Of a stretch of 64,000 bases of DNA, positions 1,178 to 27,375 are shown piece by piece; the stretch's first letter is position 1; each line of letters starts with the position of its first letter. The DNA comes from Candidatus Omnitrophota bacterium. Lineage in GTDB: Bacteria; Omnitrophota; Gorgyraeia; Gygaellales; UBA12090. Under the pieces are notes generated by a model. It searched no databases and was not told where the DNA came from. It saw only the letters and a program-made list of their open reading frames with translations. Made by a program: the position numbers and the translations under genes. The stretch is from contig JAUSCZ010000017.1 of NCBI GenBank assembly GCA_030674475.1, forward strand, positions 110,755 to 174,754, read 5' to 3'.

Positions 1178-1699
1178 CTAAATCTCGACTATATCAATCT
1201 TGGCGCCTAATTCACTAGTTATCTTTCTTAAAGTAAGTAAAGAAATATTTTCTCTGCCACTTTCAATCCGGGAAATTATCTGTTGAGAAACTTTTAACTT
1301 ATCCGCCAGCGCGTTCTGGGTAAGATTATTCTGTTTACGCAGTAACCTAAGCCTGCCGCCTACCGATAAACAAAACCCATTAATCGGCTTGGCCTTATTC
1401 CTTAACAATATACCTCTGTTATTCCCGCGGTATTTCTCCAGTATTTTCTCATATACAGCCTGCCAAAATCCTATCCGCGGGCTTTGCCAGGCATCCTTTC
1501 GCATCCTTTTTTTAATCTCATTCCAATGAAGGCAGAAATCCCGAGGTTTGAGATGATCCCGAAAAACTTCCCGGGGAATATTCTTCCTGCTAAGCAGCAA
1601 TGCGGCCAAGACAATAAATTTCGGATGTTCCGGATCGCCTAAAATTTTCTGTGCTTGTTTAGGGCTTATATTTCTATCCCACAACCAATCCTTATTCAT
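1178..1699 (-). CDS. XRE-family helix-turn-helix DNA-binding protein (HTH at the C-terminus). Likely regulator/antitoxin partner of the upstream nucleotidyltransferase.
   Basis: The C-terminal segment LRKQNNLTQNALADKLKVSQQIISRIESGRENISLLTLRKI matches the HTH_XRE pattern. Its start overlaps the upstream gene by 4 bp (ATGA), which suggests translational coupling. Confidence 0.6.
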   Translation of the reverse strand: MNKDWLWDRNISPKQAQKILGDPEHPKFIVLAALLLSRKNIPREVFRDHLKPRDFCLHWNEIKKRMRKDAWQSPRIGFWQAVYEKILEKYRGNNRGILLRNKAKPINGFCLSVGGRLRLLRKQNNLTQNALADKLKVSQQIISRIESGRENISLLTLRKITSELGAKIDIVEI

Positions 1700-2409
1700 A
1701 CTCTGCCTATCTGACTTTCCAAGATACGATCTATTTCAACCTTAAAATGCTTCTCCATTGCCCTATAATCAACTCTATTTTCAGTTTTTAACTCTAGGAT
1801 ACCGCTTTTAATCTCCAGGCGCGGATAGCTTCTGAACCAATTTATCAGTGCCTCCCGCATTGCCGGATTACAATATTTACGGGCGAACACAGACAAATTC
1901 ATAAAGGTATGAGAAAGAAAATACAGGTCATAAAAATCCTTGGCCTCCTGCCGGCCTCCGATTCTTATCTTACGCCCAATCTGGTCAAGGCTTTCCAGCG
2001 TCCCGGAAACCGCGTAAACCTTGCGCAGGTAAATATCCTCCAGCGAAAAAACCTCTATCCCTTTAAACTGCCTTGCCGGTTTTAATCTTTTTATATAATC
2101 CTCTATAAAATCAACCTTCAGCGAATACTTAGGGGATAGGCGCGCGTTAGAAACTAATATGCGAACTTTATCCTTCTTAGGTTGCTCTTTGAGTATTTCA
2201 AAATCCTTGCCTGATTCCTTTGATAAAAACTCAAGCAAAGAAATGATCTCTTTGCGGTTGTATCTCTGGGCAAAAAAGTCTAGATCAAAAGACATGCGGT
2301 GATTAAAATAAAATTTAGACAACGCCGTTCCTCCGCCTAAACAATAGTTATCGAGCCTGCCGGAAAGAATTCTCAAGACCTTATCCTGCCACGATACAAT
2401 CGTCTTCAT
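1696..2409 (-). CDS. Nucleotidyltransferase of the AbiEii/AbiGii toxin family (DUF1814/PF08843-like).
   Basis: The N-terminal motif LGGGTALSKFYFNHRMSFDLDFF matches the GGTAL...R.S.D.D core of AbiEii nucleotidyltransferases. It is first in a two-gene operon with the HTH protein. Confidence 0.65.
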   Translation of the reverse strand: MKTIVSWQDKVLRILSGRLDNYCLGGGTALSKFYFNHRMSFDLDFFAQRYNRKEIISLLEFLSKESGKDFEILKEQPKKDKVRILVSNARLSPKYSLKVDFIEDYIKRLKPARQFKGIEVFSLEDIYLRKVYAVSGTLESLDQIGRKIRIGGRQEAKDFYDLYFLSHTFMNLSVFARKYCNPAMREALINWFRSYPRLEIKSGILELKTENRVDYRAMEKHFKVEIDRILESQIGRV

Positions 2410-2415
2410 AATCTA

Positions 2416-2508
2416 AATATACAACATATATGTTGTAATGTCAAGAATTATACAACTTATATGTTGTAATACACAAAATAATTATAACACGGCTTCTTTG
2501 GCTGTCAA
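2416..2508 (-). promoter_or_regulatory. Promoter region of the AbiEii-HTH operon. Two sigma70-like promoters are overlaid by two copies of the 18-bp palindrome TACAAC(A/T)TATATGTTGTA.
   Basis: The perfect palindrome TACAACATATATGTTGTA is at 2420-2437. The near-perfect copy TACAACTTATATGTTGTA is at 2451-2468, 31 bp centre to centre. On the minus strand, TTGACA-17nt-TATATT has the first palindrome exactly in its spacer. A second TTGACA-16nt-TATAAT lies upstream. Confidence 0.45.
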
Positions 2509-3201
2509 GATTTCTTACACACACAGATAAAAGATATTGCCTTTCTTAAATTGCGGGCTGTTACCGCAAAATCAGCAGTGGTAACCGAATTATAAAATCT
2601 ATTCACCGGCAATCCTATCTTCTTAAGGCGCTGGTAAAGGTGATGCCTGGGTGTTAAATGCAGGCCATAAATCTCAACTCCGGGAAATTGGCTTAACAAT
2701 AATCTTCTCAATTCTTCCAGGATAAATTCCCTGCAATGCGCCGGATTCTTTTTATAGGTCATTGGTGAACCCTTCATTGCGTGTTCTAAATTTAAGGTAG
2801 ACAAATAAAAAGCGCCATCAGGCCTTAAAACCCTCTTTATTTCTGAAAGATACCGCGGGATATCCGGTTCCGGGATATGTTCAATAACCTGAAAGGAACA
2901 GACAATATCAAAAGAACCGTCCTCAAAACACAAGGCCCCCCGCCTCCATAGGGAAGAATTTCAGATTGGGCCTGCCGTATTTAGCCCGCGCCGCGGCGAT
3001 AACCGCCTCGTCGTAATCAAGGGCCGTAACCTCAAAAACCTCCGCCGCCAGATAATCCGCCCCATAGCCATCCCCGCAGCCGACATCCAAAACTTTCTTT
3101 CCACAGGCATCATCTCTCAAGAATTCATAAACCTTGAGATGCTCAGCAAAAAACTTAGGCGCGACCGCCTCCGGAATAATCCTGGTCTCTGGTTTGCGCA
3201 T
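2505..3201 (-). pseudogene. Class I SAM-dependent methyltransferase, split into two ORFs by a frameshift at a C6/G6 homopolymer (2936-2941).
   Basis: ORF 2923..3201 carries motif I, VLDVGCGDGYG. ORF 2505..2933 carries motif II, DGSFDIVCS, in a different frame. The junction lies in the run ggcccccc. Confidence 0.6.
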
Positions 3202-3206
3202 ACTGG

Positions 3207-3383
3207 TTAGGGAATCCTGGACAAGGAAATGACCTTTAACACTTCAAGCGCCTCTTTTTCATCCGCTAAAAAAGCAATAAGGGTAGATGTATCCAGAACA
3301 AAGACTTCTCCATTATGGGGACAATCACCACCTCCAAAAACTACTACAGTAAAGGAAGAGAAATAAGTGTTGCGTTCCCCGAA
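3207..3383 (-). pseudogene. PIN-domain (VapC-like) N-terminal remnant without a start codon.
   Basis: Minus-strand translation gives ...EVFVLDTSTLIAFLADEKEALEVLKVISLSRIP*. The VLDTSxLIAFL pattern is typical of PIN N-termini. The frame opens straight after a TAA and has no ATG, GTG or TTG. Confidence 0.25.
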
Positions 3384-3432
3384 TTACCCGAACGCCACGA
3401 AAGGGCCGGTAGGATTATCCTGTTATGCAGTT

Positions 3433-3741
3433 TTATAAAATTTTAAAACCTTTTTTAATTTCTCTATTGAGAGGATTATCGTCTTGGAAATCTTTCAGGA
3501 CAATAGGGTGGGGTTCTATACGTAAATCAAAATTTCTCCTAAGCCGCATCAGGTTGGAAAGCTCTTTTATCGTATCTTTATACCCTGCCAATACCAGAGC
3601 AATATCAATATCACTGTCATCGCTAAAATGATTCTTTGCGTATGACCCGAATAAAAAAGCCTCCCTTATTTTATAATAATTATGCGCGGCAAGAAAATGC
3701 ACGTAATCACGGGCTAGCTTTAAAGCAGTTTTCTTATCCAT
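3433..3741 (-). CDS. Minimal nucleotidyltransferase (MNT/MntA-like antitoxin-type NTase). It is an orphan, with no HEPN partner.
   Basis: The motif LFGSYAKNHFSDDSDIDIALV matches the GS...DxD nucleotidyltransferase fold. The downstream neighbour is a PIN remnant, not HEPN. Confidence 0.6.
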   Translation of the reverse strand: MDKKTALKLARDYVHFLAAHNYYKIREAFLFGSYAKNHFSDDSDIDIALVLAGYKDTIKELSNLMRLRRNFDLRIEPHPIVLKDFQDDNPLNREIKKGFKIL

Positions 3742-3842
3742 ATCCTAAATTATAACATACTTTAATATTTATACAAGCCAGCCCAATTATTCCCAGCGTT
3801 AAAAATAGAGAAAGCGCTGTCATGAGGCAGAACAAACTATTT

Positions 3843-5075
3843 CTAATATATACTGCTTGCGGGAAATACGGTTGTCTTCGCGTCCAAAGGCATAATATCT
3901 TGCGCGAGAGAGAATATCCACTGCTCTATTATATTAAGCTTGCCAACCTTTGCGGTTTCTAATGCTTTAAAAGATTTCACTTTTGCCATCGCTGACAGCT
4001 TTATTTCAGAGGCGATAATCCCCTCTCCGGTTACACAAAAAAGATCTATTTCCAATCCATCCCTTGTTCTATAAAAATAAAAAGGCGCCTCCTTGCCCCT
4101 ATGCCAATAACTTTTTATCAACTCACTAATAACCCAGTTTTCAAACAATGGCCCAGCCATAGGACCGACGCAGACGGAATGATAATCCCTCCAGTAAGTC
4201 AAATAACATAACAAACCCGTATCCAAAAAATACACTTTCGGAGTTTTTATTTCCCTCTTGTTAAGATTGCTGTGATACGGCTTTAGGATATATATCTGAT
4301 ATGTCTTCTCCAATAAACTAATCCAGGATTTAACAGTATTCAATGCCGTTCCTATCTCAGAGGCAAGAGAGGCCATGTTTAAAAGCTGCGCGCTGCGCGC
4401 GGCTAAAAGCCTTAAGAATGCCTCAAAAGTCCTTGAGCTTCTCACCCCCACCTGACTTCTTATATCCCGTTCCAGATAAGTCTGCAGATAGGATGAATAA
4501 TACTGCTCAATGTCAATCCTGCGGTCAATAACCGGCTTCGGCATAGAACCTCGGAGAATAACTTTAAATAATTCCGGCATATTTAAAACCCGGGTTATCC
4601 TTTTGGTCTTATTCATAAAAAAAGGCTTAAGCTTATCCGAAGCAGAATCGCGCGCATACTCATACAGGGAAAAACCCAATAAATTCATTATCGCCACTCT
4701 TCCCGCCAAAGATTCAGATACATTATCCATTAAGGTAAAATTTTGCGAACCGCTCAGCCAGAACAAACCGTTTGCCGGCTTCAATCTTGTAGTCCTTTCA
4801 TCTACCAGCAGCTTTATATAGGTAAGAAGATTCGGGGCATACTGTATCTCATCTATAAACAGGGGAGGTTTAAACCGCTGAAAAAACAGCTTAGGGTCAG
4901 AAATGGCGAGTTCTCTCACAACCAGGTCATCAAGGCTTACAAAACCCATATCCGGCCTGGCAATCTTTCTTAAAAGCGTTGTCTTCCCGGATTGACGCGG
5001 CCCGGTCAACAAAACAACCGGAAACGAACGCGACGCCTTTAATATATAGCTGGCAAGCAAACGATTAATATACAT
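3843..5075 (-). CDS. AAA+ ATPase of the DUF4143 family (ATP-binding protein).
   Basis: Walker A is LLTGPRQSGKTTL. Length and C-terminal region are typical of the DUF4143 ATPase architecture. Confidence 0.65.
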   Translation of the reverse strand: MYINRLLASYILKASRSFPVVLLTGPRQSGKTTLLRKIARPDMGFVSLDDLVVRELAISDPKLFFQRFKPPLFIDEIQYAPNLLTYIKLLVDERTTRLKPANGLFWLSGSQNFTLMDNVSESLAGRVAIMNLLGFSLYEYARDSASDKLKPFFMNKTKRITRVLNMPELFKVILRGSMPKPVIDRRIDIEQYYSSYLQTYLERDIRSQVGVRSSRTFEAFLRLLAARSAQLLNMASLASEIGTALNTVKSWISLLEKTYQIYILKPYHSNLNKREIKTPKVYFLDTGLLCYLTYWRDYHSVCVGPMAGPLFENWVISELIKSYWHRGKEAPFYFYRTRDGLEIDLFCVTGEGIIASEIKLSAMAKVKSFKALETAKVGKLNIIEQWIFSLAQDIMPLDAKTTVFPASSIY

Positions 5076-5222: not shown

Positions 5223-6296
5223 TTACTCACTAACTTCCGGTTTAATAGGATTTGCCATAATCTCATACACATCAATCGGGCCGGTTTTCTGCGCGCGTAT
5301 TAAATCAGGGTTAGGGAATTCTTGAGTGGAATCCTTTCTATCCTTGCTTGATTTTGCTGTTATTTTTAACTTTTTAAATATTTTCATGCCTACCGCGATT
5401 ACTAAAACCACATAAGCAATATTGATTATAAACTCGCTCAACATATCTAAACCCGAAATGAGAGTAATCGCGGTAAAAAGGATACACCACATAAATAAAA
5501 AAATTAATAACTCGCTTAAATCTCCACTGCCCGAAAGAATCTGGGATAGCGCCCCCGGAGCAGAATTCGCTTCATTATATATAATATTCTGCTGGAATTT
5601 ATTTTTTTTAAATAACGCGGTTGCAAGCAAAGGAATTTTGACAATGCTTACAAGAACAAGGCTTATAGTAATAAAGGCCGAGGCGGACATTATTAAACGC
5701 AATTGGCTAAACAATGAGACAAGAAAAATAAAACAAAAAAATAAGAAATAAGGAATATAAGAAATTAGATATAGAGAAAATATTTCAATGTCTAATTTGG
5801 CAAGAAGCAGCGATACAAAATATAATAGAAAATAGACAAGGATGGCAACTATAACAAATTTTAAGAAATTAAAATTTATTTCACTAATAAATTTTGAAGA
5901 GTTAAGCAAAATATAAATATTTTTTGACTTTGTAGCGCCGAAAAAATTCCGTATTTTGACGCTATATTTTCCAGAATCCGATATGTCTAATACGTTTATC
6001 CCCTTTAGCGTATAATCAACTGGCACTATTACATAGGCGACTCGCGTCTCTTCCTTGTTACTCACATAAGAAGGGAACACCTGCCGACCGTTAAAGTATA
6101 TTGCCTTTGGTACTCGTGGATTCCAAATATTTAATATATATGAATCTTTTTCAGGAAGCTCAAATTTCAATTCGGTATCAACATTATTAAATTTTAATGA
6201 AAAAGGATTAAATTTATTATAACTAAAAAAGGTATAAAAAAATGAAATCACTAACGAGAATACAAATAGTAAAAAGAATATATTTTTTTTATGCAT
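5223..6296 (-). CDS. Polytopic membrane protein of unknown function, encoded in an AT-rich island.
   Basis: It has many hydrophobic helices. Its C-terminus (GPIDVYEIMANPIKPE) resembles the C-terminus of ORF 10812..12623 (QIDVYEIVAPALEPN). Local GC is far below that of its surroundings. Confidence 0.4.
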   Translation of the reverse strand: MHKKNIFFLLFVFSLVISFFYTFFSYNKFNPFSLKFNNVDTELKFELPEKDSYILNIWNPRVPKAIYFNGRQVFPSYVSNKEETRVAYVIVPVDYTLKGINVLDISDSGKYSVKIRNFFGATKSKNIYILLNSSKFISEINFNFLKFVIVAILVYFLLYFVSLLLAKLDIEIFSLYLISYIPYFLFFCFIFLVSLFSQLRLIMSASAFITISLVLVSIVKIPLLATALFKKNKFQQNIIYNEANSAPGALSQILSGSGDLSELLIFLFMWCILFTAITLISGLDMLSEFIINIAYVVLVIAVGMKIFKKLKITAKSSKDRKDSTQEFPNPDLIRAQKTGPIDVYEIMANPIKPEVSE

Positions 6297-7936: not shown

Positions 7937-8713
7937 TTACTTCTTCCTTTTCCGAACAAATAGATTCCTAAAGAAATAAACCATAATAAGATTAAGCATT
8001 TTAATAGCGAGAATGAAGGTTTTTGACTTATGCCCGGTGACCGAAGATTTACCAACCCGCTTATAATAATTTACTGGTATCTCCACGAAAGAAAATCCGT
8101 TGAGGATGGTAAGCAGCATTAGCTCAGGGCCAAAATGCTGAGAGCCGACGTTAAATTTATCTTTTATTTTTTCTATCACCTCTTTCTTAAATAATTTATA
8201 GGTACATCCCACATCAGTCAGGCGTGATGTGTTATATAGATTTTGCATAACTTTTGCCGCGGCCACATTGCCACATCTCATAAACATTCCCATATTCGCG
8301 CCTTGCTCAATAAGCGCGATGTTCGTTCTTGTCCCCCATACCGCGTCAAAAGAATCCGAATAAACTAAAAGTTTAAGTATATCCGCTGCCTCGAAAGTCC
8401 CATCCGGTTCACATAAGACTATTAAATCACTAGTGGCCTCCTCAAAGCCGCGGCGAATAGCGTAACCATAGCCTTGCTTTCTTTCAAAAACCTGAATTGC
8501 CCTGGTTTTACCCACTTCTCTATCTGTCCCTTCCCGGGCGTTATTATTAACCACTATAATTTCATCCACATAGCCTGTAGCAAAGAAATCTTCGATAGCC
8601 TCTCTTATTGATTCTTTTTCATTATATGTCGGAAAGATTACTGAAACTCTTCTATTGTTCCACATGTCAGCCTTTCTTAACATTTTTGGCGACAATAAGA
8701 AACTGCCGCGCAA
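7937..8713 (-). CDS. GT2 glycosyltransferase, polyprenol-phosphate sugar synthase (DPM1-like).
   Basis: Motifs VSVIFPTYNEKESI, ...IVVNNNAR and CEPDG are present. The true start is probably M16 (MWNNRR) at about 8668, which removes the overlap with the upstream gene. Confidence 0.7.
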   Translation of the reverse strand: MRGSFLLSPKMLRKADMWNNRRVSVIFPTYNEKESIREAIEDFFATGYVDEIIVVNNNAREGTDREVGKTRAIQVFERKQGYGYAIRRGFEEATSDLIVLCEPDGTFEAADILKLLVYSDSFDAVWGTRTNIALIEQGANMGMFMRCGNVAAAKVMQNLYNTSRLTDVGCTYKLFKKEVIEKIKDKFNVGSQHFGPELMLLTILNGFSFVEIPVNYYKRVGKSSVTGHKSKTFILAIKMLNLIMVYFFRNLFVRKRKK

Positions 8714-10799
8714 ATGGTTTTATTGGCAATCTTAAGTATACCTTAACTAACATGGCGGCTTTAGGTAAATGCGACTTAAGAGTTGCCGGAATAAACTTAG
8801 GAAAACGATGCTCTATCTCAAACCCATTTTGCCGCAAGAAATCCGCCAAGGATATATCGGTAAAAATCTGCCTGTGTGTAGGATCTTCAAAATATTTATC
8901 ACGATAATATCTAAAATTGGGCTGAATGACAATTAGCTTCCCTCCACTTTTTAAAATACGCTTTACTTCGCCAATAACCTTATAAAAATCTTCTTCATTA
9001 AGATGTTCAAAAAAATTGCTGGCAAAAACCACATCAAGATAATCCGAGGGTAAATTAATCCTTTCGGTTGCCGACTGTTTAAATATAGTTATACCTTCTT
9101 TAGCAAGCTTGTCCATATCGTCAAATATATCAAGAGCATATTTTTCTTTAGCCCCTATAGTATTGATAAAATCGCAATAGCCGGCGCCCATATCTAAAAT
9201 TTTTGAATCATGAGGTATAAATCGATTAAGGTAACGCGCTATCACGCTCCATACCACTGCCCTATTCTTATCAAACTTAAGCCTGGTTTCAAAATAACCC
9301 TTTTGCGCTTCTTCTGTTTTATTTTTTAAGTATGAAAAGAAGACATTTTTAAGCATTACTTCTATCGGAAATATGGTAAGGTGCTTCTTAAACCTCAATC
9401 TGGCCAGGGGCCTGTACATCTTTATGAATATTCTTAGTATTTTATATGCTGTTGCACCGGAGACCAGATGAATGTCGAGCTTCTGATCTATAAAAAAGCT
9501 GGTAACATAAAGCGTATTTAACAGGCGCACCATTCTGCTGTTCAGCCAAGGCAAAGAATTAGCGCTATTATCAGGCCCAAAATCACCCCAATCTCTAAGT
9601 GTTCGCGGAGGCCTGTATCCATATTTAGCCGCCATATCAAATAACTCGGAACCGGGATACGGAGTAAACTGATTAAAAAGTGTCATATGGCAAAATGGGT
9701 TATCCTTTAGTAAGCGAAATATTAAGTCCGTGGATTTAAAAACATCCTCCTCAGTTTCCGTGGGTAAACCGGAGAAGAAATTATACGTGGGACGCAGACT
9801 TTTAAAATTACTTAGTTTCTTATTTACGGCTATCGTCTGATCAACGCCTATACCCTTACGCATTAAATCAAGCATGCGCTGCGAACCAGACTCTGCCCCT
9901 ATATGCAGATTCCGCGTCCCTATTCTTTCTAAAAGAGACAGAGTTTCATTATCCATCCTGTATAAATCATCTATACGCACACCCCTGAAATCAAATTTTA
10001 CCTGCCACTTTTTCTTATAAATCTCGTAGAGTATCTTTTTGGCGCGGCCTAAATCTATAAAAAAATCATCATCTAATATGCATATATAGCCGGGGGAAAA
10101 TTTATCAATAACCAATTCCAGGGATTTCATTGATTTATCTACCCCCGCTTTTCTCCATCTGCGCCCTGAGAGAGTCGGCGCGTAACAGAACGCGCAGTTA
10201 TGCGGACAGCCTCTACTGGTTAAAACCGAGATCACTCTTTCATCGTATCCTTCTCGATAATAGTTTGAAATATCTATTAATTCATAAGGCAAATCCGGCA
10301 AAGACTCTAGATCCACAACATCAGCGCATTCGTTATGGAAAATCTCTCCTTGATGTTTATAGCTGAGGCCTTTGATATTTCTTAGAGGTCTCTTATTAAC
10401 TATCGCATCCGTCAATTCACAAAAGGTCAATTCCCCTTCACCTTTGACTACAATATCCACTAAATCATCTCCCAGGGTTTGCTGAGGCATAATAGTCGGG
10501 TGTATACCGCCCCAGACAACCGGAGCAGAAGAATACAATTTTACTATTTTGGATACCTCAAGGGCATATTTTATCGGAGTTCCCGTCATAGCAGAAATAC
10601 CTACGCACACAGGCTCCTTCCTTAATTCATTGATTAATTTTTCCTTCCAGTTTAATTCTACTCTTTGATCAATAATCTTAACCTCATATCCTTTTTTATA
10701 AACAATTGAAGCAACATACAGTAAGCTTAAGGGCAGGTCTTTTATTATCGCGTCATATACGCCGGATTTTGGATACACCAAAACAACTCTATGTGCCAT
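8667..10799 (-). CDS. Fusion of a B12-binding (class B) radical SAM protein with a C-terminal class I SAM-methyltransferase domain.
   Basis: The N-terminal B12-binding region has VVWGGIHPT. The radical SAM cluster is SRGCPHNCAFCYAP. GAESGSQRMLD follows. The C-terminus carries ILDMGAGYCDF (MTase motif I) and FASNFFEHL. Confidence 0.75.
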   Translation of the reverse strand: MAHRVVLVYPKSGVYDAIIKDLPLSLLYVASIVYKKGYEVKIIDQRVELNWKEKLINELRKEPVCVGISAMTGTPIKYALEVSKIVKLYSSAPVVWGGIHPTIMPQQTLGDDLVDIVVKGEGELTFCELTDAIVNKRPLRNIKGLSYKHQGEIFHNECADVVDLESLPDLPYELIDISNYYREGYDERVISVLTSRGCPHNCAFCYAPTLSGRRWRKAGVDKSMKSLELVIDKFSPGYICILDDDFFIDLGRAKKILYEIYKKKWQVKFDFRGVRIDDLYRMDNETLSLLERIGTRNLHIGAESGSQRMLDLMRKGIGVDQTIAVNKKLSNFKSLRPTYNFFSGLPTETEEDVFKSTDLIFRLLKDNPFCHMTLFNQFTPYPGSELFDMAAKYGYRPPRTLRDWGDFGPDNSANSLPWLNSRMVRLLNTLYVTSFFIDQKLDIHLVSGATAYKILRIFIKMYRPLARLRFKKHLTIFPIEVMLKNVFFSYLKNKTEEAQKGYFETRLKFDKNRAVVWSVIARYLNRFIPHDSKILDMGAGYCDFINTIGAKEKYALDIFDDMDKLAKEGITIFKQSATERINLPSDYLDVVFASNFFEHLNEEDFYKVIGEVKRILKSGGKLIVIQPNFRYYRDKYFEDPTHRQIFTDISLADFLRQNGFEIEHRFPKFIPATLKSHLPKAAMLVKVYLRLPIKPFARQFLIVAKNVKKG

Positions 10800-10811
10800 T
10801 CTAAGATATCC

Positions 10812-12623
10812 TCATATGTTTGGTTCTAACGCGGGAGCAACTATTTCATATACATCTATTTGCCCTGTTGCCTGAATACACATTACTCCTTTCCGCGAAC
10901 ATTCCTGGGGCGGAAAACTTTTGACGAATTTAAGGCCTTGGTTTTGGGGAATCCTTTCCATATCCTCTCTATCTTCCACCAAGTCTGTTTTCAAATAATC
11001 ATCTTTATGCACCAGCACATACTTTACCCCCATCCATTTCAAGGTTTTGACTGTATCATATTCTGATAATTTCCTGATAGTCTGGGCCACCTTATTGGCA
11101 TAAGTTCCGGGGATTGTGCCGTTAATGATTTTCTTTTCATGCACCGTTTGGAAGAATTTAAACAGCTCGTTTGGAGAATCCGCATCCAAGGGATACTCAG
11201 CAATCACCTCAACCTGCGGTTGTTCCTTCAACCAATAGTATACCGCCGGCACTTTGGATAAATCAATCACTTTATAGGGCGGCCAATTCCAGAATTCAAA
11301 TAAAACCAATCCGCAGAACAAGGCAGTTAGCGCGAGCTTGGTTTTTTGCGACTTGAATCTTTCTAAGATAAAATTCAACCCAAAGCCTGCCAACACCGCC
11401 ACCGCCAACATTACCACAATCCCAAAACGGCAGTACGCCCGAAACATCGGCAGAATTTTATACAAAAAGAATGACGGCATATACAGCTTAAAGCCAAAGA
11501 TATTCCACCACGGCGGCTGGGAAAAAAACCAGGCCATAACTGCCAGAAACACAAAAAAGCCGATATAAAAACCTTTTTTGTCCGTGATTTGCGGTTCGCG
11601 GCTGGTGGTTAGTTTTTTTCTATTTCTACTCCATCTTCTAAACGCCACAAACGCCAGCACAAGCGGCACCCAGCCCAAATAAAGCGCGTGTTCAGTTAAG
11701 CTCATTCCATATATATCCGTACCTACAAAACCTTTGGCCAGGCCTCCTAAAAACGGATGCTCCGGAGAAGGAAGCAAATAACTTAGAGGCCTCGCGGATT
11801 GGCTGAACAAATCCTCAAAAGGCCGGCGCAAGCTCCACACCGAAACAGCTTTAGCCTGAGGAGCCAGAACTCGAGTCTTTATAAACGGCCAAAGTATTAT
11901 AGCCATTACTGATCCTGTCAAGGCCATGCTTAAGATGATACGCAAAGTCAACTTTTTACTATTCTTTTTATCCGCGATAAGACAATACATCCAGAAAAAA
12001 ACAGTAACCAAAAGCATAAAATACAGATAATAATAATCAAAAGAAGCCACCAGAAATAACGCTAAAGACAAAAATATCGTAGTCCGCAAATTCACATCTT
12101 TTTTCATCTTCAATAAGGCATAGACATACAAAGGAATCCACTGGATATGGGTTAAACCGATATGCTGCCAAGCCCGGGCAAAATGATACGGCGAGAAAGC
12201 GTATATTATGCCGGAAAAAACAGCTACTCTGAAATTCCCAGAGATAAACCGCATTAACCCATACATACACAATCCGGACAAAATGAAGGATAGTATAACT
12301 TCACTATTATAGGCAAAACACTGATTTGTAGTTATTGCCATTACTCTTTTAAAACCCGACCACAACGGATAAAGCTGATCAAGGACAGCGTAATCCTGGC
12401 CAAAAGGATAGGAGATATACCGGCAATCGCCATGATTAATATTATTTGTATGCGCGTATTTTAACCACCAAAAATACCATACAGACGGCTCATCAGTGCT
12501 CGCAAACCCGGCAATGGATTTATTTACAGTAAAAAATAAAGGATACGTCATTGCGAATGTCAACACTACAAACAATATCGTAATCGCAATCAATCCTAAA
12601 GCCTTATAATTTCTTATTTTCAT
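10812..12623 (-). CDS. Large polytopic membrane protein, putative GT-C-type glycosyltransferase (YfhO/DUF-like).
   Basis: The protein is 603 aa with multiple TM helices and a soluble C-terminal domain. It sits within the glycan locus. Family assignment is tentative. Confidence 0.4.
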   Translation of the reverse strand: MKIRNYKALGLIAITILFVVLTFAMTYPLFFTVNKSIAGFASTDEPSVWYFWWLKYAHTNNINHGDCRYISYPFGQDYAVLDQLYPLWSGFKRVMAITTNQCFAYNSEVILSFILSGLCMYGLMRFISGNFRVAVFSGIIYAFSPYHFARAWQHIGLTHIQWIPLYVYALLKMKKDVNLRTTIFLSLALFLVASFDYYYLYFMLLVTVFFWMYCLIADKKNSKKLTLRIILSMALTGSVMAIILWPFIKTRVLAPQAKAVSVWSLRRPFEDLFSQSARPLSYLLPSPEHPFLGGLAKGFVGTDIYGMSLTEHALYLGWVPLVLAFVAFRRWSRNRKKLTTSREPQITDKKGFYIGFFVFLAVMAWFFSQPPWWNIFGFKLYMPSFFLYKILPMFRAYCRFGIVVMLAVAVLAGFGLNFILERFKSQKTKLALTALFCGLVLFEFWNWPPYKVIDLSKVPAVYYWLKEQPQVEVIAEYPLDADSPNELFKFFQTVHEKKIINGTIPGTYANKVAQTIRKLSEYDTVKTLKWMGVKYVLVHKDDYLKTDLVEDREDMERIPQNQGLKFVKSFPPQECSRKGVMCIQATGQIDVYEIVAPALEPNI

Positions 12624-12624
12624 A

Positions 12625-13996
12625 TTATGTTTTTCGCGCTTGTTTTAAGACATAATACCTTAGGTAATAAATAAACAGGTTGAATTTCAGCCTTGCAATT
12701 ATAAATTTAATTTCCTGATAAATATTACGACGATCAAAATAATTCTTAATCTTAAGTAGAAAATTAGTATCAATTTTGCTGGTATTAATTGTTCGTTCAT
12801 AGATAGACCCTACGCCCTCCAAATTGTCATCATAGGTAAAAAGTCTTTATTTATGCAATAATTAAATAATTCTGTCCCGGGATAAGGACGATAAATAGTG
12901 CAAAGCGTTATATAAGGATTAAGACGTTTAACTAATTTTACAGTAGCCATTAAATCATTCTCAGTTTCCGTGGGCAATCCAATCATAAGCAAGGCGCTCA
13001 CTTTAAGCTTAAGCCTACGACAGAGATTAAACACATTGATTATTTGCTCAACAGTTTGGCCCTTATTAAGAAAGTTAAGCACTCTATCTGAGCCGCTCTC
13101 TATTCCAAATTCAACAAGCCGAAGGCCGCATTTAATCTCTGTCTTTATCACATCCTCTTTTACTAAGTTAATCCTTGAAAAATGCGACCACTTAAATTTC
13201 AGGTTATTCTTTTGTAATAAATCGCACAATTTTAGGACACGCTCTCTATTAATATCAAACTCATCGTCATCCACCTGAAAGCCATCAATATGATAGTGCT
13301 CTTTCAAATATTTCAAATTCTCAATTATTTTCTCCGCGCGTATCCCTCTCCAGTTGCCAAGGTGAACTTTAGGCACACAGCAAAAAGAACATTTATACGG
13401 GCATCCTCGGGATGTGTTTATCGTGATTACCCTGCTCGCGTAGAACTTCCTTCTTATATATTTTTCTACTTTAATTAAGTGCCACGCTGGCTGGGGAAGT
13501 TTCTCTAAATCAAAAAAAGATCTTTTAGTATATTTCAACTGCCCGTTATCTTTATATCCAATATTGTTTAAGTCTTCCAAGCGCTTTCTTTTGCTAATAG
13601 CGTAATCCAACAGCCCCGAAAACGCACTCTCTCCATCTCCGATAATAACAAAATCAACAAAGCCGTTTTTTAAAATAGAATCCGGATACAAAGTTGTATG
13701 GATGCCGCCCCATACAATTTTTATCGATAAATCAAATTCCGCACCTCCTTAGAAACAAAAATAGCATCATCTATTGAGGTGCCGGTAAGACAGCCCAATC
13801 CTACCACTCTCGGTTTTAATTTTAGAAAGACCACATCAATATTCTCAGTATCTACATTTCTGTCATAGACTGATATACGATAGCCGCGCTCTATGGCATA
13901 AGATGCAATATAAAGCAGTCCGTGAGGAATAAAAGCCGGTATTGTTTGAGCGCTTATGGGATTAATCAAAAGAGCGTCTACAGGAGCAAGCTTCAT
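12625..13996 (-). pseudogene. B12-binding radical SAM paralog disrupted by two frameshifts; three ORF fragments remain.
   Basis: Fragment 13721..13996 carries the B12-binding N-terminus. Fragment 12810..13691 carries the SRGCPYKCSFC core after a frameshift; the motif IVWGGIHTTLYPDS is in the shifted frame. Fragment 12625..12822 carries the C-terminal ...IYYLRYYV segment in a third frame. Confidence 0.6.
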
Positions 13997-14003
13997 GAGG
14001 CAT

Positions 14004-15464
14004 TTATCTTTCTGATATTTTTAATATCCTGCAGGCATATTCATACATCCGCCATTCTATTGGGAAAATATATAAATCCAAGACCCACCTGATTCTTGCT
14101 GACAAGGTAAATACAAAAAAAGCAATCCAGTACATAGGATTCTTAAAAGGGATGGTGTATTTCAAGCTAAGGCGCTGATTAAAGGAAAAATGAGTAAATA
14201 AAGTAGCTGTCCTGATAACACTCCGGGCTCTCCCCTTTATCCAGGGAAGATTAGCTACCGTATTGTATTGATACTCTGCCCAATCCTCTAATCTGGCTGG
14301 GGGATTAAGCCCGTTTTTTAATGCTTGAGGATACAGCGGGGTGCCGGGATAAGGAGTATAAATACTCAATCCTGAATAAAAGTTTTTGTTTTTCGCGGAA
14401 AGTTTTTTGATGATGGCGAATGTCTTAATTACATCAGCATATTGTTCCCCCGGTAGACCTAACATATAATTCGCGTAAAGCATAAAATCATATTTTCCCA
14501 GAGTTGAAATTACCATTTCCATCTGCTCAGGAGAAATCATTTTATTTATCATTTTTAGTATTTCCGTAGAACCCGACTCACCTCCAAAATTAGGATTAAC
14601 AAAGCCTGACCTTTTGAGCAAATCCCAGAAATCATCGTTTAAGCGCACTGCTGAATCAAAACGCATACTGCCGCTCCACTTAATACCCAATTTCTCATCT
14701 ATTATCCTTTGGGCAATTTCTTTAGCGCGAGGTATACTGGCAAAAAGGTAATCATCGTTTGCCATAAGTATATCCGGCTTGAAAAACTGTAATATATTCT
14801 TAATCTCTAGAATAACCCTATCCACGGACATTGCCCGCCATCTTCTTCTGTGCACGGCTTTTGTATAGCAAAATCCACAATTAAAAGGGCATCCCCGGCT
14901 TGTCCCAATGCTTACAAATGACGGCTTTCTATTAAGCTCAGAATACTTCTGTAAATCTTTTAACAAATAATATGGGACGGTGGGCATTTCATTTAAATCA
15001 ATAAAATCCCTTTCGCTCGTATTGATAATTTCACCATTATTTTTAAAGGTGATGCCTGCGATATCCGCGGGGTTTTTCCCTGAGTCAAGAGCCAAGAGCA
15101 GTTGGCAGAGTGTTTCCTCTCCTTCTCCTCTTACCACATAATCTACAAATTCATTTTGCGCGGTTTCTGCCGCGGTGATAGACGCATGCACGCCTCCCCA
15201 GATAAAAGGTGATGTAACGCCCTGTTTTCTCAGAAAACCCGCGCATTCAAGCGCGCTCCTTATCTGAGGCCCGGTAAACTGCAAGGAAAAACCAAAATAA
15301 TCATACTGTTTAAAATTTATACTTTCTTTATTTTCAACTTGAAGATCGCACACGTCAGCAATAATACCTTTTTTTCGCAAATATCCAGCCACACATAAAA
15401 CAGGATAAGGCATTCTGGCAAACAAACCGCAGGGATGCGGATAAATAAGTAAAATCTTAGGCAT
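14004..15464 (-). CDS. B12-binding (class B) radical SAM protein.
   Basis: Motifs FIWGGVHAS, GTSRGCPFNCGFCYT, GGESGS and YTPYPGTPLY are present. Confidence 0.75.
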   Translation of the reverse strand: MPKILLIYPHPCGLFARMPYPVLCVAGYLRKKGIIADVCDLQVENKESINFKQYDYFGFSLQFTGPQIRSALECAGFLRKQGVTSPFIWGGVHASITAAETAQNEFVDYVVRGEGEETLCQLLLALDSGKNPADIAGITFKNNGEIINTSERDFIDLNEMPTVPYYLLKDLQKYSELNRKPSFVSIGTSRGCPFNCGFCYTKAVHRRRWRAMSVDRVILEIKNILQFFKPDILMANDDYLFASIPRAKEIAQRIIDEKLGIKWSGSMRFDSAVRLNDDFWDLLKRSGFVNPNFGGESGSTEILKMINKMISPEQMEMVISTLGKYDFMLYANYMLGLPGEQYADVIKTFAIIKKLSAKNKNFYSGLSIYTPYPGTPLYPQALKNGLNPPARLEDWAEYQYNTVANLPWIKGRARSVIRTATLFTHFSFNQRLSLKYTIPFKNPMYWIAFFVFTLSARIRWVLDLYIFPIEWRMYEYACRILKISER

Positions 15465-16455
15465 TTTTACTTCCTTTATACCATTTAATGGTGCGGGCGG
15501 TTCCCGCGGCTAAGCCATATTCCTGCGCATAGCCTAACTCCTTAAAAATCCTTGAACCGTCGAAAATTCGTTCGGTGGCAATCGCTATAATACTTTCCTT
15601 GTTTATAAATTCTTTTCTTAAGAAAATTTTAGTTAAGAAGTTTACGATTGAGACACAAAAGAGTATTAACCAAACAGGAATATATATTTTAACCGGCTTC
15701 TGTTTCATGTCTTGGGAAGTAGCGTTTACTAACTCGTTAACCGCGTAAGGCCTGTCATCAGTAGTTATGTATGTTTTATCCGCTGAATCCTTATTCTCAG
15801 CTACGAAAATCGCCTGACTGACTACATTGCCCACATAGGTCAAACTCTGTCTATTCCTACCGGAGCCTACAATAGGCACAAGCCCTCTTTCAATAAAATA
15901 GATAATTTTTGTTAATGCCCCTAATCCTCGCTCGCCAAATACCCCGGGCGGCTGTAGTATGGTAGCATCGATGCCCATCACACTAGCATTACTTCTGATA
16001 ATTTTCTCGGCTTCAAATTTTGCCTTGCCATAAGGATCTACCGGAGACTCCACGGAGACTTCATTATAAACCGATACGCCTTTCCTGTACCCAATCGCAG
16101 CTACACTGCTTAGATACACAAGACGCTTTATCTTGTTAATCCTGCAGGCCTCTAAAAGATTATGAGTTCCCTGAGAATGAAGCGCGTACAATTCCTTTTC
16201 ATATTCCTGCAGACTCTTACCGATAGGCTTAACATTCACCAGGCAAAAAACCATATCTACCCCGGAAAGAGCAGCTTTAAGCGAATCTAAATCCAGAAGA
16301 TCCCCAAACCGTAATTCAACTCCCAAAGATTTGAGAAATTTTGTATCAGAATTATTTCTGAATAAAACAAACACTTTATACCCTTTAGCTATGAGCCGCT
16401 CAACTAAATGGCTGCCAATAAACCCACTTCCCCCTACAACCAAAACATTATTCAT
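15457..16455 (-). CDS. NAD-dependent epimerase/dehydratase (SDR family, nucleotide-sugar modifying).
   Basis: VLVVGGSGFIGSHLVERL forms the Rossmann GxxGxxG motif. A YxxxK-type active site is present (YGKAK). Confidence 0.75.
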   Translation of the reverse strand: MNNVLVVGGSGFIGSHLVERLIAKGYKVFVLFRNNSDTKFLKSLGVELRFGDLLDLDSLKAALSGVDMVFCLVNVKPIGKSLQEYEKELYALHSQGTHNLLEACRINKIKRLVYLSSVAAIGYRKGVSVYNEVSVESPVDPYGKAKFEAEKIIRSNASVMGIDATILQPPGVFGERGLGALTKIIYFIERGLVPIVGSGRNRQSLTYVGNVVSQAIFVAENKDSADKTYITTDDRPYAVNELVNATSQDMKQKPVKIYIPVWLILFCVSIVNFLTKIFLRKEFINKESIIAIATERIFDGSRIFKELGYAQEYGLAAGTARTIKWYKGSKNA

Positions 16456-19470: not shown

Positions 19471-20977
19471 ATTGATTTATTCCGGCTCTTAGCAAATAAA
19501 AATAATCGGTAATCTATGGCAAAAGAGAATATTTTATGTTTCCATCTCCAGCGCGCGATTACGGATAAAATCATAAACGCCGCGACAAACAAGGCTTTCT
19601 TAATCCGTGATTTTATCCGCTCTTTAACCCATCCAATCGTATCCGAATCCAAGAACATAAATATATAACTGGACAACATCGGGACAAAAAACTCCTGTTT
19701 GCGGGTAATCCAAGGGGTATGTCCTTCATATAAGCTGAAATTTCCCCATTCCTCCAGGCTCCGGGGCTCTTTAAAACCAAGCCTGAGCGCCTCTTGATAC
19801 AATGGCGTCCCGGGATAAGGGCAATAAATAAACATTAAGCCCCGGTGCCGGCTGTCCAAAGAAAGCAATTTATCGAACATATCCACCGTCAACTTAATCT
19901 GTTCGTCTGTTTTACGGGCAATCTCAGTGAAACTAAGATTAGCTATAGGCAATCCGACTAAGGTGGAAAATACCACTTTAATCCCATACTCATGGCATTT
20001 TTGAGCGAATTTTATGGTATCCTCAACAGTAATATCCTTATTAATAATCTTAAGGGCATCCTCATCCCCCGACTCCGCTCCGGTCAGGATACTGTAACAG
20101 CGGGTGGCCGCATAAGATCCCAGAGTTCATCATCAGCCTCAGCCAATTGCTTAGTCCTGCCGTCTATATTGCCCAGTCTGAGTGTCAGCCCCCGTTCCAG
20201 AATCCCTTTTAAAATCCCCTTGGCCCTCTTTATATCCACAAAGAAATTACTGTCATACATAGAGATACCGTTAACCTTAAATACTTTCTCCAGCCGCTCT
20301 AAATCCCGCACCACCGCCTCGGCATTCAAACCTACCCACCTTCTCTGATTGACCGTCTGCTCACAACAGAATCCGCAGCGATAGGGGCAGCCGTAGCTGG
20401 AGACATAATTAACTGTCCGGCCGCCGAACTCCGTCTCAATCAAACACTTCTCCACATCCACCAAATGATATGGAATCGCCGGCATGCCGTCCAAAGCCAT
20501 CAGCGGTCGGTCAGGATTAGAAAAGACGCGCCCGTTTTCTTTCCAATGCACTCCCGGAATACTTTCATAATTCTTTCCGGATTCTATTCTCTTTACTACC
20601 TCATAAAACGCTATCTCCCCCTGCCCCTTGACTACTATATCAATATACGGATTCTCCATGACCTGTTTTGGATACAACGAGGGATGCCAGCCTCCCCATA
20701 TAACCTTAATATCCTTGTTGGCTTCCTTGGCTATCCGGCTGGCCTTTATCCCGTCATAAATCTGATGACCGGTCATTGAAGAAACGCCAAAGACAAAGGC
20801 ATCTTTTGCCTCCCGGGCAATAATCTCAAAGTGATTATCATAGAGATTCTCGCTGATTATTTGAATAGGATAACCATCTTTATCCAGAAAACGGGAAACG
20901 CATAATAATGATAACGGTATGTCTACCGGCTTTAAATGCGGATTAGGCCGGGGATTGTATAGTATAATTTTTCTCAT
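19467..20977 (-). pseudogene. B12-binding radical SAM paralog with a single frameshift between the DDELWDLMR segment and the GAESG motif.
   Basis: ORF 20084..20977 has VIWGGWHPS, SSYGCPYRCGFC and DDELWDLMR, then stops. The out-of-frame continuation ...SILTGAESGDEDALKIINKDITVED... leads into ORF 19467..19976 (YCPYPGTPLY). Confidence 0.55.
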
Positions 20978-26544: not shown

Positions 26545-27375
26545 CTATTCTTTAATTGCCTTTACTAAAATTGCCGCGCAAGACCTTTCTTTAGACTGTG
26601 AATCATTGCCTCTGTCAATAATCTCTAAAATCCGATAACCCAGGCGGATCAACTTGGACTGTTTATCTTTCGCGGCGGAGAATTTATCCGAGGTATTACT
26701 CATACCTTTCGGCAACACCCCGCTTAAAAGCAATTTCTTTAAACCGTACAGGATAATATGATTAAAAGGCACGCAGTAATGGGTCAAAAACTCCGCGGCC
26801 TTAACCTTGAATCCGGCCTGCCGGATTAAGGCCTCAATTTCCTCCCTATAATAAAGCCGAAGATGCATATTCCATATCCCGGCCCAGAATCCTGATTTTA
26901 TGTGTTTGTCCAGACAACGCTCAAGCATCCAGTTGAGCGGATCCCATAAAAACGGATAGTTATGATTGGGCACCGTAATAATAAGCATGCCTTCCGGCTT
27001 AAGTATCCTTAATATTTCCTTGAGAGCGCCGAGATCATCTTCAACATGCTCCAGTACTTCCGTAGAAAATATCTTACTGAAGGAATTATCCTTATATGGC
27101 AAGGCCCCTATGCGGCCTTGGACCAGAGGCACGCCCATATCCTTCGTATACCCCTGGGCCAGTCTTAAAGACCCTCCATTTAAATCAAAACCGAAAATAG
27201 CGACCCCGAAGAGTTCCTTTATTGTCTTTAAATATAATCCGTCGCCACAGCCACAATCAAGTATAGAATCAAAAAGACTTATATTCAAACCCTTAACAAT
27301 ACTCAACACCCTTCTTTTAAGAGCCATATCCCCGATATTCGCGGTCAAGGATCCCAGTTTTTTAAGATCTGTCAT
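26545..27375 (-). CDS. Class I SAM-dependent methyltransferase.
   Basis: Motif I is ILDCGCGDGLYL. The post-I acidic residue is GFDLN. Confidence 0.7.
   Translation of the reverse strand: MTDLKKLGSLTANIGDMALKRRVLSIVKGLNISLFDSILDCGCGDGLYLKTIKELFGVAIFGFDLNGGSLRLAQGYTKDMGVPLVQGRIGALPYKDNSFSKIFSTEVLEHVEDDLGALKEILRILKPEGMLIITVPNHNYPFLWDPLNWMLERCLDKHIKSGFWAGIWNMHLRLYYREEIEALIRQAGFKVKAAEFLTHYCVPFNHIILYGLKKLLLSGVLPKGMSNTSDKFSAAKDKQSKLIRLGYRILEIIDRGNDSQSKERSCAAILVKAIKE

Follow-up and report, generated by a model that had tools for sequence, protein, structure and literature searches.

The window analysed here, a 64,000-nucleotide stretch of a contig from a Candidatus Omnitrophota bacterium, encodes on its minus strand a single, ATG-initiated open reading frame of 710 codons without internal stops, in which a B12-binding domain, a radical SAM core and a class I SAM-dependent methyltransferase (MT) domain follow one another in one polypeptide (Table 1). 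The protein is identical (100%) to a deposited 'MAG: cobalamin-dependent protein [Candidatus Omnitrophota bacterium]'. An earlier note on this DNA had described the gene as a natural fusion of a class B radical SAM enzyme (B12-rSAM) to a class I MTase, and Pfam, the family alignment, the structural model and Foldseek agree with this description. In the domain scan that the note had proposed, the B12-binding (67.9 bits, cutoff 32.1, E 9e-19), Radical_SAM (58.2 bits, cutoff 29.5, E 1.5e-15) and Methyltransf_11 (residues 535-624; 43.9 bits, cutoff 21.2, E 4e-11) models all score above the Pfam gathering thresholds, while Methyltransf_23 matches residues 520-664 (38.2 bits, cutoff 27). The WGGIHPT motif at residues 96-102 is kept across fused and unfused homologues, and CPHNCAFC (residues 198-205, nt 10185-10208) contains the cluster motif C198-x3-C202-x2-C205, the three cysteines of which are invariant in 13 of 13 aligned sequences.

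Table 1. Features of the fusion gene and its neighbours on the minus strand of the window (TM, transmembrane).
Feature	Residues	Position	Strand	Basis
357-aa protein, ~7 TM, last module gene		5223..6296	-	TM count
PMT_2-type GT-C membrane glycosyltransferase, 543 aa		6302..7933	-	PF13231
GT2 glycosyltransferase, 242 aa		7937..8665	-	PF00535; ATG at 8665
Whole fusion gene		8667..10799	-	ORF list; 710 codons + stop, TGA 8667-8669
Class I SAM methyltransferase domain	498-710	8670..9308	-	PF08241/PF13489, domain model, Foldseek
Helical C-terminal region of B12-rSAM family	358-497	9309..9728	-	Homologue ends and model helices
Radical_SAM core	193-357	9729..10223	-	PF04055
B12-binding (Rossmann-type) domain	23-129	10413..10733	-	PF02310
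603-aa polytopic membrane protein, DUF6311-like, directly upstream		10812..12623	-	Homology to loci L171, L003

In the MT domain, ILDMGAGYCDF (residues 534-544, nt 9168-9200) includes motif I (D536-M-G538-A-G540), and further motifs are formed by the acidic D557, D589-VVFASNFFEH599, Q626-P627 and D639-x-T641-H642. D536-x-G538-x-G540, D557 and D589 are conserved in the family alignment. Where the classic GxGxG has its third glycine the protein has Cys542, and a cysteine also occupies this position in 90% or more of the standalone MTs. The concern that the MT motif might prove degenerate is contradicted by the presence of all 20 family invariants in the window protein and of 18 of the 20 in every fused member. 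Likewise, the reading frame runs from one domain to the next without a stop or frameshift, and eight fused homologues with 60-100% identity align collinearly across this in-frame junction. The AlphaFold2 model of the whole fusion (pLDDT 94.4, pTM 0.89) has helices at residues 401-499 and a dip in pLDDT at ~490-510, corresponding to a short linker. When modelled separately, the MT domain (pLDDT 90.9) adopts a Rossmann beta-sheet with alternating beta/alpha elements and matches many class I MTases with a Foldseek probability of 1.00. The TM count of the fusion protein is zero, from which its location is read, and it appears to be a genuine enzyme of three domains that is soluble and located in the cytoplasm.

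Full-length fused sequences with 60-100% identity number at least 14 across NCBI, JGI, Logan and ENA assemblies; they form eight clusters at 90% identity and fall into a single 50%-identity cluster among 1.84 billion representatives. Membership of this fused clade is defined solely by protein-database matches, and the 160 loci kept from the genome and metagenome scans contain no further fused members; the fusion is rare. Two other B12-rSAM genes of the window are frame-disrupted (12822-13999 and 19473-20977), and indels, real or artefactual, thus do occur in the source contig, which would favour an assembly or sequencing artefact of the source MAG as the explanation of the fusion. This explanation is, however, effectively refuted by the identical in-frame junction in all of these full-length sequences across the independent assemblies and down to the lowest identity.

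The earlier note had also left it to be checked whether orthologs are fused or split in other genomes. Both arrangements were found, and the majority of relatives are split or unlinked, so that the fusion is an optional, recent and dispensable arrangement and not a mechanistic necessity. Unfused rSAM homologues of ~490 aa align with residues 1 to ~497 of the fusion, where the alignment stops, and the standalone MTs start at the end of the fused linker. In locus L093 the gene order is that of the window, with an rSAM gene (45% identity) overlapping by 8 nt (ATGTCTGA) with an MT gene (48%) that is followed by a GT2 gene (58%), while in L088 the rSAM (50%) and MT (48%) genes also overlap. Locus L173 carries an rSAM gene (64%), a Methyltransf_21 gene, an MT gene (60%) and a GT2 gene (62%). 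These gene orders give good support to an origin of the fusion inside a glycan operon of the cell envelope, where adjacent and overlapping rSAM and MT genes would have lost the stop/start boundary between them. Paralogues within the window were rejected as its source, since identity to the corresponding parts is just 24-32% for the other B12-rSAMs and 28% for the 276-aa MT encoded at 26545-27375.

An 8-nt stop/start overlap such as that in the split relatives could be fused by one indel, and a frameshift there may have joined the two genes by a selectively neutral accident, leaving two enzymes with independent jobs and no channelling or cooperation between them. The gene intervening between the halves in L173 (64%/60% identity) and the limitation of the fusion to one 50%-identity cluster would fit such an accident. 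It is nevertheless improbable, given that the fusion has been kept down to 60% identity with the invariant residues of both halves intact and that the high pTM of the model suggests a defined packing of the domains rather than beads on a string. A neutral fusion would be compatible with the lipid-carrier sugar pathway proposed below, and close relatives in which the genes are split and rearranged (L173) demonstrate that rSAM and MT need not be coupled in one chain.

A second protein with the same domain order, P0054 from Oligoflexales (795 aa), likewise combines a B12-rSAM with a class I MT. Its rSAM half is 39-42% identical to that of the window protein, whereas its MT domain is only 20% identical and its gene has different neighbours (a SPASM rSAM, a GT9 and an MBOAT protein). 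P0054 was therefore rejected as part of the same fusion event and is taken as the product of a separate one that involved an unrelated class I MTase. The literature search yielded no description of a B12-rSAM fused to a class I MT, which is an absence in that search and not proof, and likewise returned nothing relevant on B12-rSAMs in Omnitrophota or in glycan clusters of uncultivated lineages.

The C-terminal domain of the fusion belongs to a large family of standalone MTs of ~212 aa, which is distributed over at least 587 species of bacteria and archaea, including cultured Actinomycetes. The standalone members (P0121-P0240, loci L007-L086) are 42-60% identical over the full C-terminal domain and have the 20 invariant residues and a GT2 neighbour in common with the fusion, but are single-domain proteins. 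A B12-rSAM of any kind is encoded nearby in three of 80 standalone MT loci, and these rSAMs belong to other lineages (24-26% identity). A role of the MT domain in serving the rSAM half, for example by cobalamin methylation, was considered unlikely since 77 of the 80 family loci are without a nearby B12-rSAM. The nearest structures of the MT domain in Foldseek are the unannotated structural-genomics MTs 3dli and 3l8d, followed by BioC, RebM/AtmM and PfPMT (TM about 0.6, identity at most 22%). Both Foldseek and the PDB sequence search returned generic class I MTs, with no clue to the acceptor atom among them.

The GT2 glycosyltransferase is the hub in the gene neighbourhoods of the families of both halves. 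In the window its ATG lies one nucleotide past the stop codon of the fusion; the listed ORF begins at a TTG, and homologues align from its residue 17. A GT2 with 66-71% identity directly follows the fusion in all five fused loci, with a spacing of at most 4 nt or an overlap. Among the standalone MTs, a GT2 at least 40% identical to that of the window is encoded on the same strand within 300 nt in 56 of 80 species-level genomes, mostly at less than 50 nt or overlapping, in many phyla and whatever the other neighbours. On the rSAM side, this GT2 occurs within ~2 kb in six of the ten loci of the subclade with at least 45% identity and in none of the ~70 more distant rSAM loci. The top NCBIfam models for the window GT2 are AglJ, Dol-P-hexose transferase, PpgS and ArnC (26-78 bits against cutoffs of 325-529), and the top PDB matches are the Dol-P-Man synthase 5mlz and ArnC (E 3e-07 to 1e-04). 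With scores that lie below the curated cutoffs, these matches are consistent with the class of polyprenyl-P-sugar synthases, and the GT2 is a putative polyprenyl-phosphate-sugar synthase.

Downstream of the GT2, the GT-C protein matches PMT_2 with 39.4 bits (cutoff 26.1), has ~10 TM segments and has orthologues (47-50% identity) at the equivalent position in the fused loci L003 and L172. The 357-aa protein has no Pfam or NCBIfam match, and a homologue with 34% identity is found at the equivalent position in L003. On the other side of the fusion gene, the 603-aa protein (7-TM) is itself without a Pfam or NCBIfam match, but shares 52% identity with a DUF6311-bearing protein of the fused locus L171 and 49% with a 613-aa protein of L003. 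Pfam and NCBIfam recognised no flippase family (GtrA-like, MATE/Wzx-like or EmrE-like) among the adjacent genes. The PMT_2, 603-aa and 357-aa proteins were too divergent for detection by tblastn against the 160 loci, and membrane partners were sought instead with an iterated HMM, a TM-count proxy and a Pfam scan of neighbours. A protein of at least 380 aa and at least seven TM segments is encoded within 3.5 kb in 59 of the 80 MT loci, and 55 large TM neighbours scanned with Pfam included 16 PMT_2, six DUF2142 and two DUF2079 proteins. Further genes of the window cluster encode an NAD-epimerase, AsnB, GT4s and additional GT2s. Elsewhere, in P0280, an rSAM relative with 41% identity is joined to a Bac_transf polyprenyl-phosphate phosphoglycosyl transferase, which ties the rSAM family independently to lipid-carrier chemistry.

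The expectation that the fusion would give a handle on the identity of the substrate was borne out, in that the MT domain led to a GT2/GT-C lipid-carrier glycosylation module. The fusion thus acts as a Rosetta stone that links an uncharacterised B12-rSAM subfamily with a widespread, uncharacterised MT family, and both with the GT2/GT-C machinery. As the fusion arose in a sugar-modification operon, a sugar of the lipid-carrier pathway is its probable substrate, which makes for a concrete and testable hypothesis, namely the polyprenyl-phosphate sugar formed by the adjacent GT2. On a slight balance of probability, the fusion would doubly modify the sugar of this system, by O/N-methylation and radical C-methylation. 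The steps, with the substrate, their order and both chemistries as we infer them, would be as follows. At the cytoplasmic face, the GT2 would attach a sugar to polyprenyl phosphate, and the fusion would introduce two modifications into this sugar, while it is on the carrier or shortly before it is loaded. The polar O- or N-methylation would fall to the MT domain, and the B12-rSAM domain would act on an unactivated carbon by a radical mechanism, with C-methylation from methylcobalamin as the likeliest outcome. After flipping across the membrane, the modified sugar, still linked to the lipid, would be transferred by the PMT_2 GT-C to an acceptor in the periplasm, which may be LPS, a glycan or a protein. 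A combination of radical C-methylation and polar O/N-methylation on one substrate would be plausible. We know of no earlier case in which a radical SAM enzyme is described as acting on a glycosyl donor linked to a lipid.

Cytoplasmic accessory enzymes that modify the lipid-linked donor include ArnD, NaxD and DprE1/E2. Three-component glycosylation systems, in which lipid-linked sugar donors are made that can be modified on the carrier and for which epimerisation on the carrier is known (PMC11127046), provide a close parallel. Such extracytoplasmic systems, among them GtrB/GtrA/Gtr*, ArnC/ArnT, PpgS/Rv3779 and C. youngae ORF15/14/12, combine a polyprenyl-P-sugar synthase, a flippase and a GT-C (PMC11127046), and the present locus resembles them in its small DPM1/ArnC-like GT2 beside a PMT_2/ArnT-type GT-C. 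The window GT2, in contrast to GtrB and ArnC, is without TM helices, and the accessory enzyme here would be a methyltransferase, with a B12-rSAM in the fused clade, which is not known from these systems. The links between the MT family and this machinery also suggest that methylated lipid-linked sugar donors may be a common and overlooked decoration of the cell envelope.

The gene linkage would also be compatible with modification of an NDP-sugar before transfer, or of another molecule, as well as of the lipid-linked sugar. Adjacency reflects a shared pathway and not a shared substrate, and the NAD-epimerase, AsnB, GT4s and further GT2s of the cluster typify nucleotide-sugar and repeat-unit assembly. 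The linkage to the GT2 could accordingly represent mere co-operon membership, and the substrate would be a nucleotide-sugar precursor in solution or else the acceptor, glycan or lipid, at the end of the pathway. This is unlikely in view of the very tight pairing of MT and GT2 in 56 of 80 loci and many phyla and of the rSAM relative that is fused to a polyprenyl-P phosphoglycosyl transferase, while a periplasmic acceptor is excluded for a cofactor-dependent enzyme that is taken as cytoplasmic on its lack of TM segments.

Few groups of enzymes are as large and as poorly characterised as the class B radical SAM enzymes, and to our knowledge the substrates of environmental members are almost never known. 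TsrM, OxsB, AprD4, MgmA/QCMT, CysS and TokK share the B12-binding Rossmann domain, the CxxxCxxC barrel and the helical C-terminal region with the fusion, which matches the solved class B structures in Foldseek with E-values of 1e-18 to 1e-22 over ~450-550 columns and the PDB by sequence with E-values down to 4e-14. These solved enzymes are, however, just 15-21% identical to the fusion and none has a class I MTase domain, and a Foldseek search with the full-length model found no PDB chain covering both halves. The fusion is a rare and recent joining of two known domain types and does not represent a new enzymatic principle. Its substrate class is apparently an envelope glycan sugar, as opposed to the antibiotic, peptide or cofactor substrates of the solved enzymes.

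The lipid-carrier sugar pathway could also be retained with a B12-rSAM half that is not a methylase. The 43 NCBIfam matches of the fusion include none near its cutoff and assign it to no named family; the best are BchE (131.6 bits, cutoff 481) and HpnJ (122.5 bits, cutoff 578), neither of which is a methylase. HpnR, PhpK, MgmA and KedN5 all score far below their cutoffs, and NCBIfam places the rSAM half in none of the curated methylase families (GenK, Fom3, TokK, CysS, Mmp10 or MgmA type). The structural neighbours of the model include TsrM, MgmA and CysS as well as the non-methylases OxsB and AprD4. As BchE, HpnJ, OxsB and AprD4 are not methylases, C-methylation by the rSAM half would only be the commonest outcome for the class. 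The rSAM half may instead catalyse another radical step, such as epimerisation, dehydration/deoxygenation, ring contraction or rearrangement of the sugar, the product of which would then be methylated by the MT domain. This would be in line with the top NCBIfam profiles, with the presence of OxsB and AprD4 among the nearest solved structures and with the ring contractions and radical rearrangements that are ascribed to the Cbl-dependent subgroup (PMC8992657). A non-methylase is nonetheless somewhat unlikely, as the BchE and HpnJ scores lie so far below the family cutoffs that a shared function is not implied, and the methylases TsrM, MgmA and CysS are structurally just as close. The class B enzymes characterised so far are also mostly methylases.

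With the lipid-carrier sugar and C-methylation retained, the two halves might even act on one atom. CysS, a B12-rSAM methylase of cystobactamid biosynthesis, acts on an O-installed methyl group, converting OMe to OEt and OiPr, although its substrate is a carrier-bound aminobenzoate and not a sugar (PMC12846815). In the structural alignment it is 15-18% identical to the fusion, and it carries no class I MTase domain. By analogy, the MT domain could O-methylate a hydroxyl of the polyprenyl-P-sugar and the rSAM half C-methylate the resulting methoxy group, giving an O-ethyl or larger alkoxy sugar for export by the GT-C, which is very improbable. We know of no O-ethyl or larger alkoxy sugar as a modification in bacterial envelope glycans.

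Aside from the fusion itself, eight B12-rSAM-type genes are found in ~30 kb of glycan genes in the window, which points to an unusual amount of radical chemistry directed at Omnitrophota surface glycans.

The fusion protein (710 amino acids, aa) is encoded by a single ATG-started open reading frame (ORF) without an internal stop, at 8667..10799 on the reverse strand, exactly where an earlier note, which left the strand unstated, had placed a natural fusion of a class B radical SAM (rSAM) enzyme to a class I SAM methyltransferase (MT). Both motifs quoted in that note occur in the ORF, and the three-domain make-up it described is upheld by Pfam matches above the gathering thresholds (see table). 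The B12 domain and the CxxxCxxC motif of class B radical SAM proteins are both present, as are the fold and motifs of the class I MTases. A deposited protein from a 225-kb contig, named [quoted passage not shown], shows 100% identity to the fusion protein. The AlphaFold2 model of the full-length protein (pLDDT 94.4, pTM 0.89) shows its sole confidence dip at the linker (residues ~490-510), and the absence of transmembrane (TM) segments shows the protein to be of predicted cytoplasmic character. No curated functional family (NCBIfam) reaches its cutoff, no solved structure spanning both halves was found and no fusion of the B12-rSAM/class I MT type was found in the literature searched.

Database searches revealed seven more clusters of fused proteins (708-722 aa; 60-80% identity to the window fusion), one with a 5'-truncated representative. 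All aligned fused proteins share a collinear, in-frame junction between the halves, and the stop or frameshift which the earlier note named as fatal to its claim is absent. Each of the three cluster cysteines is kept in 13/13 aligned sequences, and the WGGIHPT stretch shows no variation in any aligned sequence that includes this region. The MTase motif is likewise not degenerate, with all 20 invariant residues of the standalone MT family retained in the window protein and 18/20 in every fused member. Identity within the fused clade is 65-83% for the rSAM half and 54-75% for the MT half, and both halves are therefore conserved; a neutral fusion, with halves that do not cooperate, is considered improbable. 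Cluster look-up yielded at least 14 full-length fused sequences across NCBI, JGI, Logan and ENA assemblies, leaving an artefact with a negligible probability, and an assembly artefact is excluded despite two frame-disrupted neighbouring B12-rSAM genes in the contig. The fusion is thus genuine, and its earlier description accurate.

When 1.84 billion representatives at 50% identity were searched exhaustively with HMMER, the fused clade was reduced to one representative (P0002). Besides this clade, only three multi-domain proteins occur among the top 150 relatives, the remainder being ~490-aa standalone B12-rSAMs terminating at query residue ~497. P0054 combines a B12-rSAM with a class I MT domain just 20% identical to that of the window and is, judging by this divergence, a separate, independent fusion event. 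P0280 (725 aa) joins a B12-rSAM to Bac_transf (polyprenyl-phosphate phosphoglycosyl transferase), which ties the rSAM family independently to lipid-carrier chemistry, while P0367 (934 aa) is a SPASM-rSAM plus B12-rSAM. Orthologues, which the earlier note proposed to compare, exist in both fused and split form. In locus L093, an rSAM gene (45% identity), an 8-nt ATGTCTGA overlap, an MT gene (212 aa, 48%) and a GT2 glycosyltransferase gene (58%) follow in exactly the window's order. In L088 the rSAM gene (50%) overlaps a 209-aa MT (48%), while L087 has the order MT (36%), rSAM (50%) and GT2 (60%). The rSAM and MT of L173 (64% and 60% identical) are as near to the window protein as the most divergent fused member, with a Methyltransf_21 gene between them and a GT2 after. 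These split pairs, including overlapping rSAM and MT genes, indicate that the fusion is a recent and evolutionarily optional joining of adjacent overlapping genes, which would most simply have arisen by an indel at the overlap. The fusion architecture and its origin from adjacent genes are near certain; the joining of consecutive operon genes from two well-known domain families is a rare but unsurprising event.

The mechanical ORF list places the downstream GT2 gene at 7937-8713 (-), with a TTG start and a 47-nt overlap with the fusion gene. Its homologues align only from residue 17 of this ORF, and the real start is therefore the ATG at 8665, one nucleotide after the TGA of the fusion, which implies translational coupling. 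The 242-aa GT2 has no TM helix. NCBIfam gives AglJ, Dol-P-hexose transferase, PpgS and ArnC as its best matches, each scoring under the cutoff, and the best-matching solved structures are Dol-P-Man synthase and ArnC. Every one of these matches is a polyprenyl-phosphate-sugar synthase. A GT2 (66-71% identity) directly follows the fusion in all five fused loci (the window, L003, L170, L171 and L172), at a spacing of at most 4 nt or overlapping. The next gene encodes a PMT_2 GT-C protein with ~10 TM segments in the window, a PMT_2 protein in L003 and L172 and a 649-aa protein without a Pfam match in L170. Among loci found via the rSAM half, only the subclade of at least 45% identity is linked to the standalone MT family (4/10 loci) or a window-type GT2 (6/10), with neither found in ~70 more distant loci. 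The combination of GT2 and GT-C via a lipid-linked sugar donor is a hallmark of three-component extracytoplasmic glycosylation, in which sugar donors can be modified while carrier-bound (PMC11127046). Two conserved polytopic membrane proteins without a Pfam or NCBIfam match flank the module: a 603-aa protein at 10812-12623 (-), 52% identical to a DUF6311 protein of L171, and a 357-aa protein at 5223-6296 (-), whose counterpart at that place in L003 is a 34%-identical homologue. The missing flippase, or a second transferase, might be one of these two.

The C-terminal domain alone retrieved more than 300 standalone MTases (~212 aa, 42-60% identity), and scanning a single genome for each species placed this family in at least 587 genomes, with bacterial and archaeal hosts in Saccharibacteria, Gemmatimonadota, Acidobacteriota, Actinomycetota, Verrucomicrobiota, Methanocellaceae and Woesearchaeota. 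Cultured Actinomycetota hosts include Actinoplanes, Knoellia and Nocardioides (e.g. L030, Actinoplanes subtropicus; L038, Knoellia; L068, Nocardioides sp. Root190). Among the best 80 loci (L007-L086), 56 have a GT2 with at least 40% identity to that of the window on the strand of the MT and no more than 300 nt away, a number that rises to 60 for a distance of 2.5 kb, and a protein of at least 380 aa with at least seven TM segments lies within 3.5 kb in 59. Pfam matches for 55 of these membrane proteins were PMT_2 (16), DUF2142 (6) and DUF2079 (2), most others having none. From these neighbourhoods, a DPM1/ArnC-like GT2, the MT and a GT-C look like a widespread unstudied module, with cultured hosts open to genetics. 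A B12-rSAM of any kind, always of other lineages, occurs near the MT in only three of the 80. In L050 (Elusimicrobiota), L060 and L026 (Methanocellaceae) it lies 51 nt, 115 nt or 2.4 kb downstream and is 24-26% identical to that of the window; the MT therefore co-occurs with more than one rSAM lineage.

The GT2 would make a polyprenyl-P-sugar, and the fusion protein would modify this, or the immediate precursor of its sugar, twice: the MT domain by polar O/N-methylation and the B12-rSAM domain by a radical reaction, most probably C-methylation. The doubly modified product would then be flipped, and the GT-C would pass it on to an acceptor in the envelope. ArnD, NaxD and DprE1/E2 are further cases of donor modification on the carrier. 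This overall reading has a somewhat better than even chance of being correct. Its substrate class is about evenly poised; an NDP-sugar or some other substrate is unlikely. The specific chemistries are held at less than even odds. BchE/HpnJ are the top profile matches of the radical half and OxsB/AprD4 are among its close structural neighbours, both favouring a radical half which is not a methylase, a rather unlikely alternative. The alternatives overlap with one another and with the overall reading, so their likelihoods do not sum to one. The B12-rSAM CysS extends O-methyl to O-ethyl and beyond (PMC12846815), which motivates a reading of tandem O-methylation and radical C-methylation yielding an alkoxy sugar, although for the fusion this would be very doubtful. 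The fusion is of value as a guide: it ties two uncharacterised groups, a B12-rSAM subfamily and a very widespread MT family, to lipid-carrier glycosylation, and it offers a substrate hypothesis that can be tested directly.

The surrounding glycan-biosynthesis island (~32 kb, ~5200-37900, all genes on the reverse strand) contains eight B12-rSAM-type genes, just 24-32% identical to one another, along with GT4s and GT2s, and housekeeping genes (TyrRS, S1, PGM) follow from ~38 kb.

Features of the fusion protein, the island and its edge
Feature	Position	Strand	Remark
B12-binding domain	residues 23-129	(-)	Pfam, 67.9 bits
Radical_SAM	residues 193-357	(-)	Pfam, 58.2 bits
CPHNCAFC	residues 198-205	(-)	motif present
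Methyltransf_11/23	residues 520-664	(-)	Pfam, 43.9 / 38.2 bits
ILDMGAGYCDF	residues 534-544	(-)	motif present
NAD-epimerase	15457-16455	(-)	island gene
AsnB	21009-22745	(-)	island gene
SPASM radical SAM	25421-26533	(-)	island gene
Separate MT	26545-27375	(-)	island gene
HTH/AbiEii toxin-antitoxin pair	1178-2409		island edge
Degraded class I MT remnants, two pieces	2754-3093		inside 142-aa ORF 2505-2933 and upstream of it
AAA_14/DUF4143 ATPase	3843-5075		island edge

The gene content at 1178-5075 suggests mobile or decaying DNA at the island boundary. The B12-rSAM gene at 12822-13999 (-) is split over two frames, with paralogue residues 1-130 matched at 13999-13616 and 94-396 at 13724-12822, and that at 19473-20977 (-) is broken near 20081-20108 into ORFs of 297 and 169 aa; both may be pseudogenes, or the breaks may be indel errors of the MAG.
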